Notes: generated by a model not told the origin, from the letters alone. Numbered from the stretch's first letter, positions 7,789 to 45,381 are shown. The stretch: 64,000 bases of DNA from Candidatus Oxydemutatoraceae bacterium (GCA_965211995.1 OZ243040.1:1100249-1164248), one strand, 5' to 3'. A program made the numbers and translations.

Positions 7789-8442
7789 TCACACAACCTG
7801 GTCGCGCACATAGACCGGCAGCGCCTGCGACGGCTTCAGGGTGTCGCCGGCTTTGACTTTCGCCGTTGCGAGTTTCAGCACCGCGCCGGCGCGCGGCAGC
7901 AGGTCCGGCTTGCGCACCGCAAGGCCGGCGCCGAGCGCAGGATAAGCCGCGAGACCGCTGCCGCCGGCGCAGCCCGAAAACGCGGCAAGCCCCGGCACCT
8001 TCTCCGCCGATACCACGCCTTCCTCCCCCTCGGCTTCGGCCAGGCCGCCGCGGCCGCGGCGGAAGAAGCCGTAATAGACCTCGCCCATGCGCGCGTCAAT
8101 CGCCGCGAGCGCACGCGGCTCGCCGCAGCCGTCGAACAATTGCTGCGCGAGCGTTGCAAGGTTCGACACCGCCGCCACCGGCAGACCGTGCGCGTACGCG
8201 ATCCCCTGCGCCGCCGCCGCCGCGATCCTGACGCCGGTAAAAGCGCCGGGGCCGCGGCCGAACGCAAGCGCGTCGAGCGCGGCGGGCGCGATCCCCGCCG
8301 CCGCGAACACGGCGTCGCACATTTCAAACAGCAAGCGGTTGTGTTGGCGCGGCGCGACCGTGAATTCTTCATGCACTTCGCCGCCGCACGTCAACGCAAC
8401 CGAGCAGGCCGCGGTCGCCGTATCCAGCGCGAGCAGGTTCAC
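7789..8442 (-). CDS. tsaB: tRNA t6A biosynthesis protein TsaB (YeaZ)
   Basis: N-terminus (M)NLLALDTATAACSVAL and the motif GPGAFTGVRI. The GTG start at 8442 overlaps the upstream ORF's stop codon (GTGA). Confidence 0.9.
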   Translation of the reverse strand: MNLLALDTATAACSVALTCGGEVHEEFTVAPRQHNRLLFEMCDAVFAAAGIAPAALDALAFGRGPGAFTGVRIAAAAAQGIAYAHGLPVAAVSNLATLAQQLFDGCGEPRALAAIDARMGEVYYGFFRRGRGGLAEAEGEEGVVSAEKVPGLAAFSGCAGGSGLAAYPALGAGLAVRKPDLLPRAGAVLKLATAKVKAGDTLKPSQALPVYVRDQVV

Positions 8443-10586
8443 CGCGCCGCGCCGGAGTCGCCGGAGTCGGCGGATTCAAGTCTGAAGCGCGACGCCGGCC
8501 CGTCATCCTCCGGCGCCCGCCCGCGTTGTCTTGTGTGTTTCCCCCCGCCGGCCGGGCCGCACCCGGCCGGGTCGCCCTCAGGGGCGGAGTGATCTGCAGC
8601 AACCCCCCCGGCTTGTTTTTGCCGCACTTCGGGCCGGAAGTTGGCGCCGCTCAGGTAGGGGCGCAGCGAGTGCAACTGCTCGCAACGTTTCATCGGCGGC
8701 AGGCTGTTCAGGATAAGCTTGCCGTAACTGCGCGTGCGCAGGCGCTTGTCGCCGATCATCACCACCCCGATATCGGTTTCGTCGCGGATCAGGCGCCCGA
8801 TCCCCTGGCGCAGCGAGATCACCGCTTCGGGCAGCGTCGCTTCCCTGAAAAAATCGCGCCCCTGCTCTTTCGCCTTGTGAATGCGCCCCCGCGTCAGCGG
8901 ATCGGAGGGCGACGCAAAGGGCAGGCGGTCTATGATCACGCAGCGCAGCCCGGCGCCGCGCACGTCGACGCCTTCCCAGAACCCCGCGGTGCCGAGCAGC
9001 ACCGCGTTCGACGTACTGCAAAAGCGCCGGATCAGTTCAACCTTCGGCGCGCTCCCCTGCACCAGCAGCGTGTAGTCGGTTTCGTCGGCGATCTTTCTCG
9101 AGGCCGCCTGCAGCGCGCGGTGGCTCGTGAACAGAAAGAACACGCCCCCCTGAGCCATCTCGAGCAAACGATAGCCGGTTTCGATCACGCCGGCGGTATG
9201 CTCGGGGTCGTTCGGGTCGGGCAAATTCGACGGCACGTACAAGGCGGCCTGCTCGGCGTAGTCGAACGGGCTGTCGAGCGCGACGCGGGCGCAACTCTCA
9301 GCCAGCCCGGTCTGCGCCAGAAAATAAGTGAAGTCGCCGCCGAGCGACAAAGTCGCCGAGGTGTAGATCCAGTTCGCGTCGTACAACTTGTGCTTGTCGC
9401 TGAGCAGCGGTGCGACGTCGGTCGGGCTCGCGTACAAACGAAAAGAGTTGCGCCCGGTCTGATACCAGCCGACCCGGTCGCCGCCGCTCTCGAGCACCTC
9501 GGCAAACCGCCGCCGCATGTCTTCAGCGCGATCCCACAGGTTGAACAACTGCTCGGACTGTCGCCGCAGGGGCTGCAACGCGCCCGCGAGTTGTTCGAGT
9601 GCGGCGGCGAGCACGCGCCGCGCCGCGGCGACGTCGTCTTGCCCGAGGGCGACGGCGGTGGTCTCCCGCACGGGCAATTGACCGAGCGCACTCATCATCG
9701 TCGCGATCGCCGACTCCAATTCCACGGCGGCGCTCATCAACTCCGGCGTTTTTGCCGCGTCGCCCGCGGCGCGTATATCGCGCAGCAACCACAGGCACTG
9801 AGAACTGGTGAACGAGATGCTGAAAAAGTGATTGGCGATGCCGCCCAACTGATGCGCCTCATCTATGATTACGGTGTCAACCTGAGGCAGCAATTGACCG
9901 AAGCCTTCCTCCCTGAGCGTCATATCCGCGAGCAGCAGGTAATGGTTGACGACGACGAGGTCGGCTTGCAGCGCGCGGTTTCTCGCGGCGGCGACGCAAC
10001 ATTCGTCGAACTTCGGGCAGCGGGCGCCGAGACAGTTTTCAGACGTCGAGGTCAGCGACGCCCACAGCGGGTCGTTTTCGCTGAGGCCGCCGAAGTCGCT
10101 GATGTCGCCGCCCGCGGCGGTCTTCGACCAGCGATAGACGCGCTCGACCATGCCGTTGTCGTCGGCGTCGAGCGCGCGCGTCCGCCACGCCTGCTCCAGG
10201 CGCTCGGCGCACAGGTAGTTGGCTCTGCCTTTGAGCAGCGCGGTGTCGGCGGCGATGCCGAGCGCCTTCAGCACCAGCGGCAGATCCTTGGTGTAGATCT
10301 GATCCTGCAAGTAGCGCGTGCCGGTCGAAATCACGACCTTCTTGCCCGACAGCACCGCAGGCACGAGATAAGCGAAAGTCTTGCCGACGCCGGTGCCGGC
10401 TTCGATCACGAGGTTGCCGCCGTTTTCGATCGCGTAGGCGACGCGGCGCGTCATCGTCTCCTGTTGCGGGCGGCTGCGAAACCCCGGCACCAGCGACGCA
10501 AACGGCCCGTCGGCGGCCAGCAGCCGGCTGCATTCATCGGCGAACGCCCTCGCCGACGCCCGCTTGGATGGCGGCACTCGCGCCAT
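8439..10586 (-). CDS. yoaA: DinG/YoaA-family Fe-S ATP-dependent DNA helicase with a 3' extension derived from the element
   Basis: Walker A (AGTGVGKT), DEAH box (IIDEAHQL) and a Cys cluster (NYLC, CLGARCPKFDECC). Adjacent to tsaB, as yoaA is in E. coli. The last roughly 65 aa are encoded by element copy A. Confidence 0.85.
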   Translation of the reverse strand: MARVPPSKRASARAFADECSRLLAADGPFASLVPGFRSRPQQETMTRRVAYAIENGGNLVIEAGTGVGKTFAYLVPAVLSGKKVVISTGTRYLQDQIYTKDLPLVLKALGIAADTALLKGRANYLCAERLEQAWRTRALDADDNGMVERVYRWSKTAAGGDISDFGGLSENDPLWASLTSTSENCLGARCPKFDECCVAAARNRALQADLVVVNHYLLLADMTLREEGFGQLLPQVDTVIIDEAHQLGGIANHFFSISFTSSQCLWLLRDIRAAGDAAKTPELMSAAVELESAIATMMSALGQLPVRETTAVALGQDDVAAARRVLAAALEQLAGALQPLRRQSEQLFNLWDRAEDMRRRFAEVLESGGDRVGWYQTGRNSFRLYASPTDVAPLLSDKHKLYDANWIYTSATLSLGGDFTYFLAQTGLAESCARVALDSPFDYAEQAALYVPSNLPDPNDPEHTAGVIETGYRLLEMAQGGVFFLFTSHRALQAASRKIADETDYTLLVQGSAPKVELIRRFCSTSNAVLLGTAGFWEGVDVRGAGLRCVIIDRLPFASPSDPLTRGRIHKAKEQGRDFFREATLPEAVISLRQGIGRLIRDETDIGVVMIGDKRLRTRSYGKLILNSLPPMKRCEQLHSLRPYLSGANFRPEVRQKQAGGVAADHSAPEGDPAGCGPAGGGKHTRQRGRAPEDDGPASRFRLESADSGDSGAAR
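8470..8643 (-). mobile_element. Palindromic TIR element, copy A (forms the 3' tail of the yoaA ORF)
   Basis: Aligns with the other six copies: ...CAAGTCTGAAGCGCGACGCCGGCCCGTCATCCTCCGG...GCCGCACTTCGGGCCGGAAG. Confidence 0.8.
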
Positions 10587-13736: not shown

Positions 13737-16516
<2,780 letters not shown>

Positions 16517-17944
16517 TTATTCCGGCAACGGACTCCAGACGACGCGCAATTCGTCGCCGAGATAAACCAAAGGCACGCGGTCGCGCTCCCACGGCGGCAC
16601 GCCGAGTTCCTGAAAGACTTTTTTCAGCCGCTTGTGAAAGCGCCCGCCGGCGTACGCGCATTTCTCTCCGCCGCGGCGCAGGCGCACGGTCAGCGCCGCG
16701 GCCTCGGTCAGTTCCGGCGCGCGTTCACGCAGTTGGCGCCAAGTCAGTTTGGCGTTGATCTCCGGCAGGTCGAGGTCGGTGCCGCAACGCCAGCGCCGTG
16801 CGCCCGCGGCGGCGGGCGGCGCGAGCGGCGTCATCGCGTACAACTTTCCGCGGTAATGGCGCACCTCGGCGCCGGGCCAGCGCGCCAGCGCGCCGGGGCC
16901 CGCGTCGCCGGACACCAAAACGCCGCTCAGGTGCAGCAGTTGCTTCTCCGAAGGCGTCGGCAGGCCGGCCCGCTCGAGCCAATGCCTCAGCACCGCTTTT
17001 TTCTCGGCGTCGTGCAACTCGAGACAGCGTGCGACCGACAAAGTGCCGCCGGCGTCGCGGCAATGCAGGTACCCCCGCCGTGCGACCCGGCCGATCAGTG
17101 CGCGGGCTTCGGCCTGATGACGCGCGGCGCGCGCCAGGGTTTCCCGCCACCCGGGCCAGCGTTCACACAGCACCGGCGCGAGCCGCCTCCGCACGTAATT
17201 GCGGTCGTAGCGCAAGTCATCGTTGGCGGGGTCGTCAAGCCATTCGAGACGGTGGTCGCGCGCGTACCGCTCGAGTTGTGCGCGCGTCGCGCCGAGCAGC
17301 GGGCGCACGATGCGCCCGGCGCCGAAGCGCGCACAGGCCGGCATGCCCGCGAGACCCGCGGGACCGCCGCCGCGCAGCAGTTGCAGCAAGACGGTCTCGG
17401 CCTGATCGTCGCGGTGGTGCGCCGTCATCAGCAGATCGCCGCTTTGCACCAGGGTTTTCAGCGCCGCGTAACGTGCGTCGCGCGCGGCTTCCTCCGGGCT
17501 GCGCTTGCGGGCGGCGGATGCCAGGCTGAAGTGCGGCGCCGGCCCGCCATCCGCCGCCGCCCGCCCGCATCGTCTTTGGTATTTCCCTTCACCGGCCGGG
17601 CTGCGCCCGCCCGGCTCCCCCTCGAGGAGCGAGTGATTTTCAGCGGCCCGCTCCGCTTGCTTTGACCGCGCTTCGGAGCGGCGGGCGGCGGCGTCAACGC
17701 GCAGGCACCGGCACGCGACGCCCAGCCGCTTCGCCGTGCGCCGGCAAAACCGCTCCCACTCGCCGGCGTCGGCGTGCAGGCCGTGGTTGACGTGCACGGC
17801 GACGAGTTCGGTGCGGGCGCGCGCCGGGCACTGCGACGCCATGTGCAGCAGCACCGTCGAATCCACGCCGCCGCTGTACGCAATCAGCAGCCGGCGGGCG
17901 GCGAACTCAGCCGCGAAGCGGGCGATGCGCGCGTGCAGACACAC
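16517..17944 (-). CDS. tilS: tRNA(Ile)-lysidine synthetase carrying an in-frame element insertion
   Basis: PP-loop motif SGGVDS, then HHRDDQAETVLLQLLRGGGPAGLAGM. About 55 aa encoded by element copy C sit between LRVDAAA and RKRSPEEAARDARY. Confidence 0.9.
   Translation of the reverse strand: MCLHARIARFAAEFAARRLLIAYSGGVDSTVLLHMASQCPARARTELVAVHVNHGLHADAGEWERFCRRTAKRLGVACRCLRVDAAARRSEARSKQAERAAENHSLLEGEPGGRSPAGEGKYQRRCGRAAADGGPAPHFSLASAARKRSPEEAARDARYAALKTLVQSGDLLMTAHHRDDQAETVLLQLLRGGGPAGLAGMPACARFGAGRIVRPLLGATRAQLERYARDHRLEWLDDPANDDLRYDRNYVRRRLAPVLCERWPGWRETLARAARHQAEARALIGRVARRGYLHCRDAGGTLSVARCLELHDAEKKAVLRHWLERAGLPTPSEKQLLHLSGVLVSGDAGPGALARWPGAEVRHYRGKLYAMTPLAPPAAAGARRWRCGTDLDLPEINAKLTWRQLRERAPELTEAAALTVRLRRGGEKCAYAGGRFHKRLKKVFQELGVPPWERDRVPLVYLGDELRVVWSPLPE
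17514..17687 (-). mobile_element. Palindromic TIR element, copy C (inside tilS, in frame)
   Basis: GGCTGAAGTGCGGCGCCGGCCCGCCATCCGCC...GAGTGATTTTCAGCGGCCCGCTCCGCTTGCTTTGACCGCGCTTCGGAGCGG. Confidence 0.85.
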
Positions 17945-31887: not shown

Positions 31888-32489
31888 TTTCGGCGGGTGG
31901 GGACACACCTGCGCGGTGCTGGACAACGGCAATGTCGAGTGCTGGGGTCGTAACACCGATGGCCAAACGAACGTGCCGGCGGGTTTGGCGGGCCGGGTGC
32001 GCCAGATTGCGGCGGGTCAGAAGTACACCTGCGCGGTGACGGACGACGGCAATGCCGAGTGCTGGGGTCTTAACCGCAATGGCCGAACGAACGTGCCGAC
32101 GGGCTTGGCGGGCCGGGTGCACCGGATCGCGGCGGGCGGTCATCACACTTGTGCAGTGACGGACGATGGCAATGTCGAATGCTGGGGCTGGAATGGCGAT
32201 GGCCAAACGAACGTGCCGGCGGGCTTGGCGGGCAGAGTGCGCCGGATTGCGGCGGGCGTCCGGCACACCTGCGCGGGTGCCGGACGACGGCAATGCCGAG
32301 TGCTGGGGTCTTAACCACGATGGCCAAACAAACGTGCCGGCGGATTTGGCGGGCCGGGTGCGCCAGATTGCGGCGGGCAGTTTTCACACCTGTGCGCTGA
32401 CGGACGGCGGCAATGTCGAGTGCTGGGGCAATAACACCCAAGACCAAACGAACGTGCCGACAGGCTTGGCGGGCCGGATACGTCATCTG
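31888..32489 (+). repeat. Five tandem 114-bp (38-aa) RCC1-like repeats
   Basis: The unit HTCAVTDDGNVECWG.N.DGQTNVPAGLAGRVR.IAAG occurs 5 times with near-identical DNA. Confidence 0.85.
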
Positions 32490-39237: not shown

Positions 39238-39302
39238 GCGCTCAGCGTATCACAAGCGCGGTTTCGTCGCAGTCTGTTCGGCCAATCCCCCGCTTGCGCG
39301 AG

Positions 39303-39480
39303 AGCCTCTTTCAGTCACGCAATGCGACAAAAGAAAGCAGAGCAAGCCGCTGAAGACCACTCCCCCCTTGAGAGCAAGTCGGCCGAGCGCAGCCCGGCCG
39401 GTGGGAGGAAACACATAAAGACGATACCAACGGGCACCGGAGAATGACGGGCAACACCGGGTTCAAATTTGAACCCGGCG
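39303..39480 (+). mobile_element. Palindromic TIR element, copy D (inverted, degenerate ends; between the mutT/thiE-like gene and hflX)
   Basis: GCCGCTGAAGACCACTCCCCCCTTGAGAG...GGCCGAGCGCAGCCCGGCCGG...GGAGAATGACGGGCAACACCGGGTTCAAATTTGAACCCGG. The stop codon of the mutT/thiE-like ORF (39463-39465) lies inside it. Confidence 0.7.
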
Positions 39481-40605
39481 AGGACGCCGATCGAAACAGC
39501 GGATCCCGGCGATCCCCTGCGCCCCCCGTGCGCGTGCTTCGGCGAGATCTTCGCGGGCCATGCCGCCGAGAGCGTACACCGGGATCCGCGCGTCGCGCAC
39601 AATCTCCTCAAACGCGATGAACCCGAGAGACGCGGCATGACCGGGCGTCGGCTTGACCGGGCCGAGCACGCAGAAGTCGGCGCCCGCGGCCTCGGCCCGG
39701 CGCAGTTCGCCGCGGCCGTGGCACGACACCGCAAACCAAAGCTCAGGCGGCACCGGACGCTTCTCCCCCAGGCGCGCGAACGCCGCCTGGCTCAAATGGA
39801 CGCCCGCGGCCCCGCACGGCCCGACCTGTTCGGGGCGGTCGTGGAGCAGCAACTCCGCGCCGGCCTCACGCGCTTTCGCGGCAACCCGCGCGGCGAGCAG
39901 GCGATAGCCGCCGGCGTCCGCGTCTTTCGCGCGCAATACGATCAGGCGCACGCCGGATGCAAGTCTGAAGCGCGGCGTTGACCCGTTATCCTCCGGTGCC
40001 CGTCCGCATCGTTTTCCGTATTTCCCCCCGGCCGGGCCGCGCTCGGCCGGGGCCCCCTCAAGGGGGGAGCGGTTTTCGGCGGCCGGCTCTGCTTTCTGTT
40101 GCGGCACTTCGGATCGGCAGCCGGCAACGCCGCCGGCGAGCAGGTATTCACAGCGGCGTTCAATTTGCGCGAGCGGCGCCGCCGGCGTGATCGCGTATTC
40201 ATGCGGCAACTTGAGCGCGTTCAGGATCGCGCGGTTTGCGGGTGGAAATTCGTGCGCCGACAACGTGTTGACCGGGCGCCATGCGAGCCGGCCCGCAGCC
40301 GCGCCCGCGCCCGGGTCTTGATCGGTGCGCGCTTCGCGCACGTCGAGCAGCAGTCGGCGGTCGCCGTAATCGTAAGTAAACCGGATCACCGGCGCGCCGA
40401 CTTCGGCGGCGATGCCGATCTCCTCTTTGAGTTCGCGGCGCAACGCCTGCTCCGGAGACTCGCCGCGCTCGACCTTGCCGCCGGGGAATTCGAGGCGTCC
40501 CCCCTGATGACGCCGCGCGTCGCGCTGTGCGACGAGCACTCGCCCGGCGCGCGCGACCACGCCGAGGACGACGTGGATCGGGGGCGGGCGGGCGGCGCGC
40601 GGCAA
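39463..40605 (-). CDS. mutT: Nudix 8-oxo-dGTP diphosphatase (MutT) fused to a ThiE/TenI-like domain, carrying an in-frame element insertion
   Basis: Nudix box GGKVERGESPEQALRRELKEEIG. C-terminal TMP-synthase-like fold (IPVYALGGM). The same fusion and the same position after argJ-secA are seen in Pseudomonas. Element copy E encodes about 51-55 aa of the inter-domain region. Confidence 0.8.
   Translation of the reverse strand: MPRAARPPPIHVVLGVVARAGRVLVAQRDARRHQGGRLEFPGGKVERGESPEQALRRELKEEIGIAAEVGAPVIRFTYDYGDRRLLLDVREARTDQDPGAGAAAGRLAWRPVNTLSAHEFPPANRAILNALKLPHEYAITPAAPLAQIERRCEYLLAGGVAGCRSEVPQQKAEPAAENRSPLEGAPAERGPAGGKYGKRCGRAPEDNGSTPRFRLASGVRLIVLRAKDADAGGYRLLAARVAAKAREAGAELLLHDRPEQVGPCGAAGVHLSQAAFARLGEKRPVPPELWFAVSCHGRGELRRAEAAGADFCVLGPVKPTPGHAASLGFIAFEEIVRDARIPVYALGGMAREDLAEARARGAQGIAGIRCFDRRPRRVQI
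39952..40124 (-). mobile_element. Palindromic TIR element, copy E (inside the mutT/thiE-like gene, in frame)
   Basis: GCAAGTCTGAAGCGCGGCGTTGACCCGTTATCCTCCGG...CCCCCTCAAGGGGGGAGCGGTTTTCGGCGGCC...TTGCGGCACTTCGGATCGG. Confidence 0.85.

Positions 40606-41846: not shown

Positions 41847-41863
<17 letters not shown>
40622..41863 (-). CDS. argJ: Bifunctional glutamate N-acetyltransferase / amino-acid acetyltransferase
   Basis: Motifs [26 protein letters not shown] and [10 protein letters not shown]. Confidence 0.95.
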
Positions 41864-45095
<3,232 letters not shown>

Positions 45096-45169
45096 GGCTC
45101 ACTCCAATCTTCGCCGCCTAGTGTAGCGAAAACCGCGGCGGCCATTCACGCACCGGCACCCGGAAGATG

Positions 45170-45346
45170 CCGGCTTCCGGCCCGGAGTACGACCAAAGCC
45201 GGCAGCGCAGGCCGCTGAAAATCACTCCGCCCTCAAGGGAAAGCCGGCCGGATTGCGCCCGGCCGGCGGAGGGAAACACAAAAGACGGCGCGGGCGGACA
45301 CCGGAGGATGACGGGCCGGCGCCGCACTTCAAACTTGAATCCGGCG
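45170..45346 (+). mobile_element. Palindromic TIR element, copy G (inverted; 5' of secA)
   Basis: ...GGCCGCTGAAAATCACTCCGCCCTCAAGGGAAAGCCGGCCGGATTGCGCCCGGCCGGCGGAGGG...GGAGGATGACGGGCCGGCGCCGCACTTCAAACTTGAATCCGG. Confidence 0.85.
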
Positions 45347-45381
45347 ACGTCCGGGAGACGCACAAGTCGGGCGCCCCGGTC

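Follow-up and report, generated by a model that had tools for sequence, protein, structure and literature searches.

Results

The tilS gene of a small gammaproteobacterial genome (1.94 Mb, 65% GC) carries, in frame, a copy of a dispersed repeat that is also present between genes, a relationship that sequence comparison confirmed. We consider it quite likely that this segment is a selfish element of an RPE-like or MITE-like kind, a non-autonomous palindromic repeat that is translated as part of its host gene and tolerated there, with TilS remaining functional. The mechanism by which the element moves, its translation and the retained activity of TilS are parts of this account that we infer. The stretch of DNA that we analysed, hereafter the window, is 64,000 nucleotides (64 kb) long and has a GC content of 65.5%.

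An in-frame insertion splits the PP-loop domain of TilS

tilS lies in a dnaE-accA-tilS-pyrG block whose gene order is syntenic with that of related genomes. Its product is a type I tRNA(Ile)-lysidine synthase, with an SGGxDS-containing PP-loop ATP-PPase domain, a substrate-binding domain and a C-terminal domain all present; Pfam recognizes TilS (PF09179), TilS_C (PF11734) and the ATP_bind_3 PP-loop domain (PF01171), the last of these in two separate stretches. In an alignment of 120 homologues, the window TilS keeps SGGVDS, and likewise every invariant column. The closest relatives of both TilS and SecA are from Gammaproteobacteria, and the host is therefore not a member of the Rickettsiales.

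The closest orthologous tilS locus that we fetched (L001, from GCA_029782575.1) is 85–88% identical at the nucleotide level. The alignment between the two breaks at 17718/17512, where 205 bp in the window correspond to 31 bp in L001, so that the window has 174 bp (58 codons) more. This matches the insertion that an initial annotation, made from the DNA alone, had placed at 17514–17687, and the in-frame peptide quoted there is found in the tilS ORF exactly as quoted. The nhmmer envelope of the copy is slightly wider (17508–17695). Because a direct repeat of 9–11 bp (in its 9-bp form, GCCGCCCGC) lies at the junction, the exact boundary of the insert is ambiguous by 9–11 bp. Both flanks are collinear with orthologous loci. 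In L001, the site within tilS is empty, as is the tilS-pyrG spacer (6 bp).

The insert interrupts the ATP-pyrophosphatase domain between conserved blocks, as the initial annotation had proposed, with the beta3 strand (..CLRV) before it and a helix bearing invariant residues (SPEEAARDARY) after it. The invariant residue E151 lies 8 residues downstream of the affected loop. Across the 120 homologues, the stretch from V83 to E151 is 10 residues long in 109 and 8–15 residues long in ten others; only the window TilS has a 67-residue stretch. The insert is absent from all of the other aligned homologues (119/119). The initial annotation had also proposed looking among orthologues for a homologous loop at this position; a comparable loop was found in none of them (0/119), and the site of the closest relative is empty.

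Seven copies of the repeat lie within the window

The tilS segment aligns with an intergenic copy about 1.1 kb away (copy B) over ~170 bp, with 81–82% identity (E = 7e-43), in agreement with what had been noted from the sequence. The repeat unit is ~165–178 bp long with paired termini, and seven copies lie within the window (Table 1). A profile built from these copies and searched with nhmmer gave exactly seven matches in the window (E = 1e-46 to 1e-52), and a 24-position DNA pattern matched all seven, with matches in 0 of 100 shuffles. Four of the seven copies are inside ORFs and three are intergenic. In all four genic copies the element has one orientation and one reading frame; thus, as had been claimed, tilS carries the element in a shared frame, which is that of the copies in secA, the DinG-like helicase gene and the MutT-TENI fusion gene.

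Table 1. The tilS gene, copies of the repeat and an adjoining tandem repeat, with coordinates counted from the first nucleotide of the window.
Feature	Coordinates	Strand	Evidence
tilS, tRNA(Ile)-lysidine synthase type I, 475 aa	16517..17944	-	ORF, Pfam, model
Repeat copy within tilS, 58 extra codons, TilS residues ~86–143	17514..17687	element +, gene -	comparison with L001
Intergenic copy B, tilS stop to pyrG start, 1-bp deletion breaks peptide frame	16329..16511	+	blastn, nhmmer
Copy in DinG/YoaA-like helicase gene (8439..10586, -), in-frame	8464..8649	+	nhmmer
Copy in MutT(NUDIX)-TMP-TENI fusion gene (39463..40605, -), in-frame, 3-bp deletion	39947..40131	+	nhmmer
Copy in secA (41847..45095, -), in-frame, variable region of NBD2	43178..43366	+	nhmmer
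Intergenic copy upstream of secA, downstream of M23 peptidase gene, peptide frame open	45164..45352	-	nhmmer
Intergenic copy between MutT-TENI gene and hflX, most degraded, with 1-bp indels and a stop	39301..39482	-	nhmmer
Tandem repeat adjoining secA copy, 33 bp x 5.9, 92% matches, encodes 11-residue unit	43361..43554	-	

The copies differ from the family consensus by 11–22% (11% for the tilS copy) and from one another by 19–31%. The ends of the consensus, GCCGG.TTC..GTC.GAAGTGCGGC and GCCGCACTTC..GAA.CCGGC, pair over ~25 nt when folded, so that the consensus has the terminal inverted repeats of a MITE, and it also contains a central perfect palindrome of 11 bp. It folds better than 199 of 200 shuffles (z = -2.85). 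Single copies fold less convincingly than the consensus, the tilS copy no better than its shuffles (z -1.3 to -1.5), and the structure derived from the alignment has little covariation. The family has two features of an RPE-like class, being a dispersed repeat of ~100–200 bp with palindromic or terminal-inverted-repeat potential and occurring in frame in unrelated genes with one conserved peptide. A flanking direct repeat (GCCGCCCGC, 9 bp) is seen at the tilS copy only, the other six copies lacking a consistent one; since the copies are old (11–22% diverged), target-site duplications may have decayed. Searches of Rfam returned no family, intron or other match, either at the gathering threshold or at E <= 1. 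In the 64-kb window, the terminal motif occurs nowhere besides the seven copies, and no transposase or parent IS was found there.

Within the element there is a terminator-like hairpin followed by a T-run, at 17614–17640 (+) in the tilS copy and at equivalent positions in others, antisense with respect to each of the four host genes. This hairpin points toward the upstream gene in the two minus-oriented intergenic copies, and the motif is weak in several copies. We considered the antisense hairpin as a cause of the orientation bias and set it aside, as it is weak or absent in several copies.

An open frame through copy B continues into pyrG, giving an ORF that starts at GTG 16489 and has an 81-residue N-terminal extension (16244–16489, -). 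The true start of pyrG is probably ATG 16243, as in the relative, which would make the extended ORF an annotation trap.

The window also holds two other repeats. One is a tandem repeat of 137 bp x 4 (93% matches; 2215–2757) between pepA and valS, each unit of which contains the valS start codon and the first ~13 codons (MKTTY.PHRIEQS), so that the 5' end of valS is quadruplicated. The other is a 120-bp repeat present 4.8 times at 31904–32477, whose translation (HTCAVTDDGNVECWG..) resembles RCC1-type beta-propeller repeats.

Other genes on the same contig carry the element

The genes hosting the element in the window are housekeeping genes, and two of the genic copies sit in the middle of a catalytic domain. 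In the DinG/YoaA-like helicase, the element lies two residues ahead of the orthologous C-terminus, so that the protein is 715 residues long, compared with 652 in an orthologue (L082), and its ORF still ends in a 4-bp overlap with tsaB. The copy in the MutT-TENI gene is positioned just past the start of the TENI domain. In secA, the copy and the adjoining 33-bp tandem repeat form one insertion of ~110 residues in the variable region of NBD2, which neither E. coli SecA nor any of ten relatives possesses, six of these relatives being 75–79% identical.

We searched 1.84 billion representative proteins exhaustively with HMMER, using a profile of the frame-0 peptide, a query blind to the other frames, and obtained eight matches. 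Six were convincing, and all six are encoded on the host's own 1.94-Mb contig (1,943,614 bp). The further carriers on this contig are riboflavin synthase (RibE), in which the copy lies in the first lumazine-binding domain, the type II secretion protein GspB, and ORFs that consist of the element repeated two to four times in tandem. In sum, the in-frame pattern recurs independently in at least seven genes.

Three proteins deserve separate description. One 409-residue protein (P0241; same contig, outside the window) consists of three to four tandem units, each comprising the element peptide followed by ADWWAWHEAVVAAG, and this tail matches the SecA sequence directly after the secA copy. Judging by these matches, a copying event seems to have taken in both the element and its secA flank, with amplification afterwards, which resembles transduplication. 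In another protein from the same contig (P0247, 233 aa), a fragment similar to class II aminoacyl-tRNA synthetases is fused to an element copy that begins in a basic frame (..RPLRITPPSRES..) and shifts to the usual frame (..GRAPEDDGPTPHFRLES); it is probably a degraded gene or copy. Finally, a 645-residue protein from a 12-kb ENA contig of another organism (P0245) has five tandem repeats with an 11-residue motif, and nine of these residues (9/11) agree with what the CTCCCCC..GGGGGAG hairpin of the element encodes. This motif could be a distant relative or a case of convergence.

The family looks confined to one genome

The family profile found no copy with nhmmer in 1.3 Mb around the tilS genes of 80 other gammaproteobacterial genomes, nor in ~85 kb from the closest relatives. 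The 24-position pattern had no match in 185,579 species-representative genomes and none in JGI metagenomes, an absence that counts for little, as the pattern is insensitive at ~15% divergence per copy and the host lineage seems to be missing from those sets. Plasmid and phage collections gave no match to the element. A peptide profile run against an index of 5.8 billion proteins had no matches and missed the window's own proteins too, probably owing to limits of the word index or to composition. Because the six convincing protein matches share one contig, the repeat family looks confined to a single genome on the sequences compared, and we propose that it spread after the split from the closest sequenced relative. 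In one relative (L084, ERZ26694896), a TnpB/Cas12f-like ORF fragment lies near tilS at 16166–16690; no element copies were found at that locus.

The reading frame, and not the peptide sequence, appears to be under selection

Variable sites among the four genic copies fall evenly on codon positions 1, 2 and 3 (22/22/22). In the frame used, the GC3 of full-length copies is 0.68–0.77, compared with 0.85–0.92 for the host genes, and GC2 is too high. Thus, the element is not patterned like a sequence selected as protein. The sole indel in a genic copy is the 3-bp deletion in the MutT-TENI gene, whereas 1-bp indels occur in two of the three intergenic copies, one of which contains a stop as well. 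On these sequence comparisons, it is the reading frame that is under selection and not the peptide that it encodes. The tilS genes of the window and L001 have a total dS of 0.35, or ~0.17 per lineage, which is similar to the 11–22% divergence of the copies; the insertions are therefore old and have long been kept open.

Three of the six frames of the consensus are open. We calculated that ~28% of 58-codon frames would be stop-free by chance at this GC content, so three open frames is roughly what chance would give. The frame used encodes a hydrophilic peptide (GRAVY -1.44) with a net charge of +1, compared with +13 and +8 for the other two open frames, which makes it the most benign of the three, and the peptide belongs to no Pfam family. 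Given three open frames, the chance that four copies would share one is ~0.04, which is no more than suggestive. Since all four host genes are on one strand, the orientation bias could reflect the direction of replication.

TilS is predicted to keep its fold

The dN/dS of tilS relative to L001 is 0.33 and is equal on either side of the insert. We modelled TilS together with its insert using AlphaFold and an alignment of 120 sequences (mean pLDDT 89, pTM 0.81). In the model, beta3 spans residues 77–82, a helix formed by the insert follows at 85–107 with falling confidence, residues 109–144 are disordered (pLDDT < 50), and a helix at 150–165 holds the invariant residues E151, R155 and R158. The model superposes on the crystal structures of TilS from E. 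coli, Geobacillus and Aquifex (1NI5, 3A2K and 2E21), with TM scores of 0.72 for 1NI5 and 0.84–0.86 for A. aeolicus TilS. The model therefore predicts that the TilS fold is kept and that most of the insert is disordered between beta3 and alpha3. Some loss of activity is plausible, because the loop is conserved in length and lies close to invariant residues.

AUA codons are used 1.5 times per 1000 and occur in secA, accA and the helicase gene, so AUA decoding is still needed. According to published work, tilS is an essential gene of both E. coli and B. subtilis, yet alleles with reduced function may be tolerated, and its universal essentiality has been questioned (PMC12514573).

Discussion

A tolerated selfish element and its alternatives

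The account that we favour is one in which copies would have landed in genes and spacers alike, and in which the genic copies that survived would be those that had a length preserving the frame, an orientation and frame giving a stop-free, hydrophilic, charge-balanced peptide rich in Gly and Pro, and a tolerant position in the host protein (loop, variable region or terminus). The copy in tilS would be transcribed and translated with the gene to produce a largely disordered excursion of 58 residues, and TilS would stay functional. A variant of this account, rather unlikely in our estimation, is that the family is adapted to genes, its sequence having been shaped in a compact genome with little spacer to read as an innocuous disordered linker on one strand and in one frame, with the terminator-like hairpin facing away from the host gene. 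Such an element may also move flanking coding sequence, as the protein combining the element with a secA fragment (P0241) would illustrate. If this were true, the family would be a 'coding-competent' selfish element that could colonise loops of essential enzymes even where their length is conserved, and it would drive the evolution of new loops and linkers outside Rickettsia.

That TilS is instead crippled or inactive strikes us as unlikely. Under this alternative, tilS would be a weak allele or a recent pseudogene, and AUA decoding would either be relaxed or rely on other means, namely an additional tilS gene, a tRNA-Ile(UAU) or a different modification of C34. The rarity of AUA codons, the tolerance of reduced-function alleles, the doubt about universal essentiality, a dN/dS that is not especially low, and the position of the insert in a length-conserved loop adjoining invariant residues all fit such a gene. 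However, the 475-codon ORF is intact despite ~11% substitutions in the element, constraint does not differ between the two sides of the insert, and the invariant residues are all kept; moreover, three more housekeeping genes, secA among them, show the same in-frame pattern, and AUA codons persist in secA and accA. A second alternative would have the element peptide act as a tag, linker or interaction motif that several proteins took up and that selection preserves for its sequence. We judge this very unlikely, even though every genic copy seen uses one frame and a 10-residue motif and RRRGRAPEDDGP can be recognised from copy to copy: substitutions fall evenly on the three codon positions, the codon-position GC signature of the host is missing from the element, and the peptide lacks a Pfam match and is modelled as disordered. 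The intergenic copies retain the same motifs, and the similarity is therefore explained by shared DNA ancestry.

It is harder to credit that the segment is lost on the way to the mature protein, whether as an intron-like or RNase-processed RNA, by translational bypass or as an intein. The palindromic potential of the element would suit such a process, and yeast mitochondria are known to bypass GC-rich mobile 'byp' elements. Against it, a frame free of stops is conserved in genic copies only and would be needless if the segment were removed, and Rfam gives no intron or other match. Moreover, an intein would have to be far larger than 58 residues. As a candidate class, inteins and self-splicing introns were rejected, there being no Hint-type match in Pfam and no catalytic RNA in Rfam. 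Least credible of all is an assembly or binning artefact that misplaced the repeat inside tilS. The source is indeed an assembly from an uncultured organism, but copies 19–31% apart would not be expected to collapse or misjoin, both flanks are collinear with orthologous loci, the length of the insert is an exact multiple of three, and the pattern recurs independently in at least seven genes. We retain the reading of the tilS segment as a translated and tolerated selfish repeat.

Significance

On that reading, the colonisation of genes by selfish palindromic DNA in the style of Rickettsia also takes place in an unrelated, GC-rich gammaproteobacterium with a small genome. Among the sites that the element has reached are the motor domain of SecA and the catalytic domain of TilS, an enzyme regarded as essential and proposed as a target for antibiotics. 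Its presence in tilS amounts to a natural experiment in tolerance to insertion, with 58 residues, predicted to be disordered, in a loop whose length in 109 of 120 relatives is 10 residues. The element is a hazard for annotation as well, producing inflated ORFs, orphan 'proteins' that consist of repeats, and spurious N-terminal extensions like the one in front of pyrG.

Relation to known repeat families

REP sequences of 20–40 bp and REPINs of ~100 bp are GC-rich palindromes that are abundant in proteobacteria, essentially extragenic and mobilised by RAYTs. The family described here resembles them as a GC-rich palindromic repeat of a proteobacterium, but we rejected this assignment, as its unit is ~170 bp with a long conserved interior, four of the seven copies are intragenic, and no RAYT was seen in the 64-kb window. 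The betaproteobacterial BRE (Hot et al. 2011; PMC3110155) is GC-rich (~69%), ~90 bp long, arranged in tandem and present in some genes. It is likewise a GC-rich repeat of high-GC proteobacteria with some copies wholly within coding sequence. However, BRE is VNTR-like and spans many genera, whereas the units here are ~170 bp, mostly single and dispersed, and were found in one genome.

In-frame fusions of MITEs are known from Coxiella, with QMITE1 and QMITE2 (PMC5896051), and from enterobacteria, with RU and ERIC elements (PMC2759123). Like those MITEs, the present element is small, lacks a transposase, has terminal inverted repeats and occurs in many dispersed copies, some of them in frame within ORFs; the C-terminal copy in the DinG-like helicase in particular resembles QMITE2 in Coxiella enhC (PMC5896051). 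The genic copies of the Coxiella and enterobacterial MITEs are a minority and are mostly found at gene ends or in hypothetical genes, whereas here four of seven copies are in housekeeping genes and two of these are in the middle of a catalytic domain.

The closest parallel is with the RPEs (Ogata et al. 2000), which later accounts (PMC10969869, PMC3184786) characterise as palindromic repeats of roughly 105–150 bp, many of them in frame in unrelated genes at positions compatible with the fold. Both are dispersed palindromic repeats (~100–180 bp) of a small genome with many copies in frame in unrelated housekeeping ORFs and with a conserved peptide. In both, the inserts are considered to be compatible with the fold of the host protein. 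At 58 residues, the peptide of the present element is somewhat longer than those of RPEs (roughly 35–50 residues). The present host is an uncultured gammaproteobacterium with 65% GC and not Rickettsia, and base composition makes homology of sequence implausible. We accordingly did not assign the family to the RPE families proper (Rickettsia RPE-1 to RPE-10), the host not being one of the Rickettsiales. We conclude that the family works like RPEs without being one of them: it involves no new mechanism, and it adds a second lineage in which selfish DNA resides in protein-coding genes.
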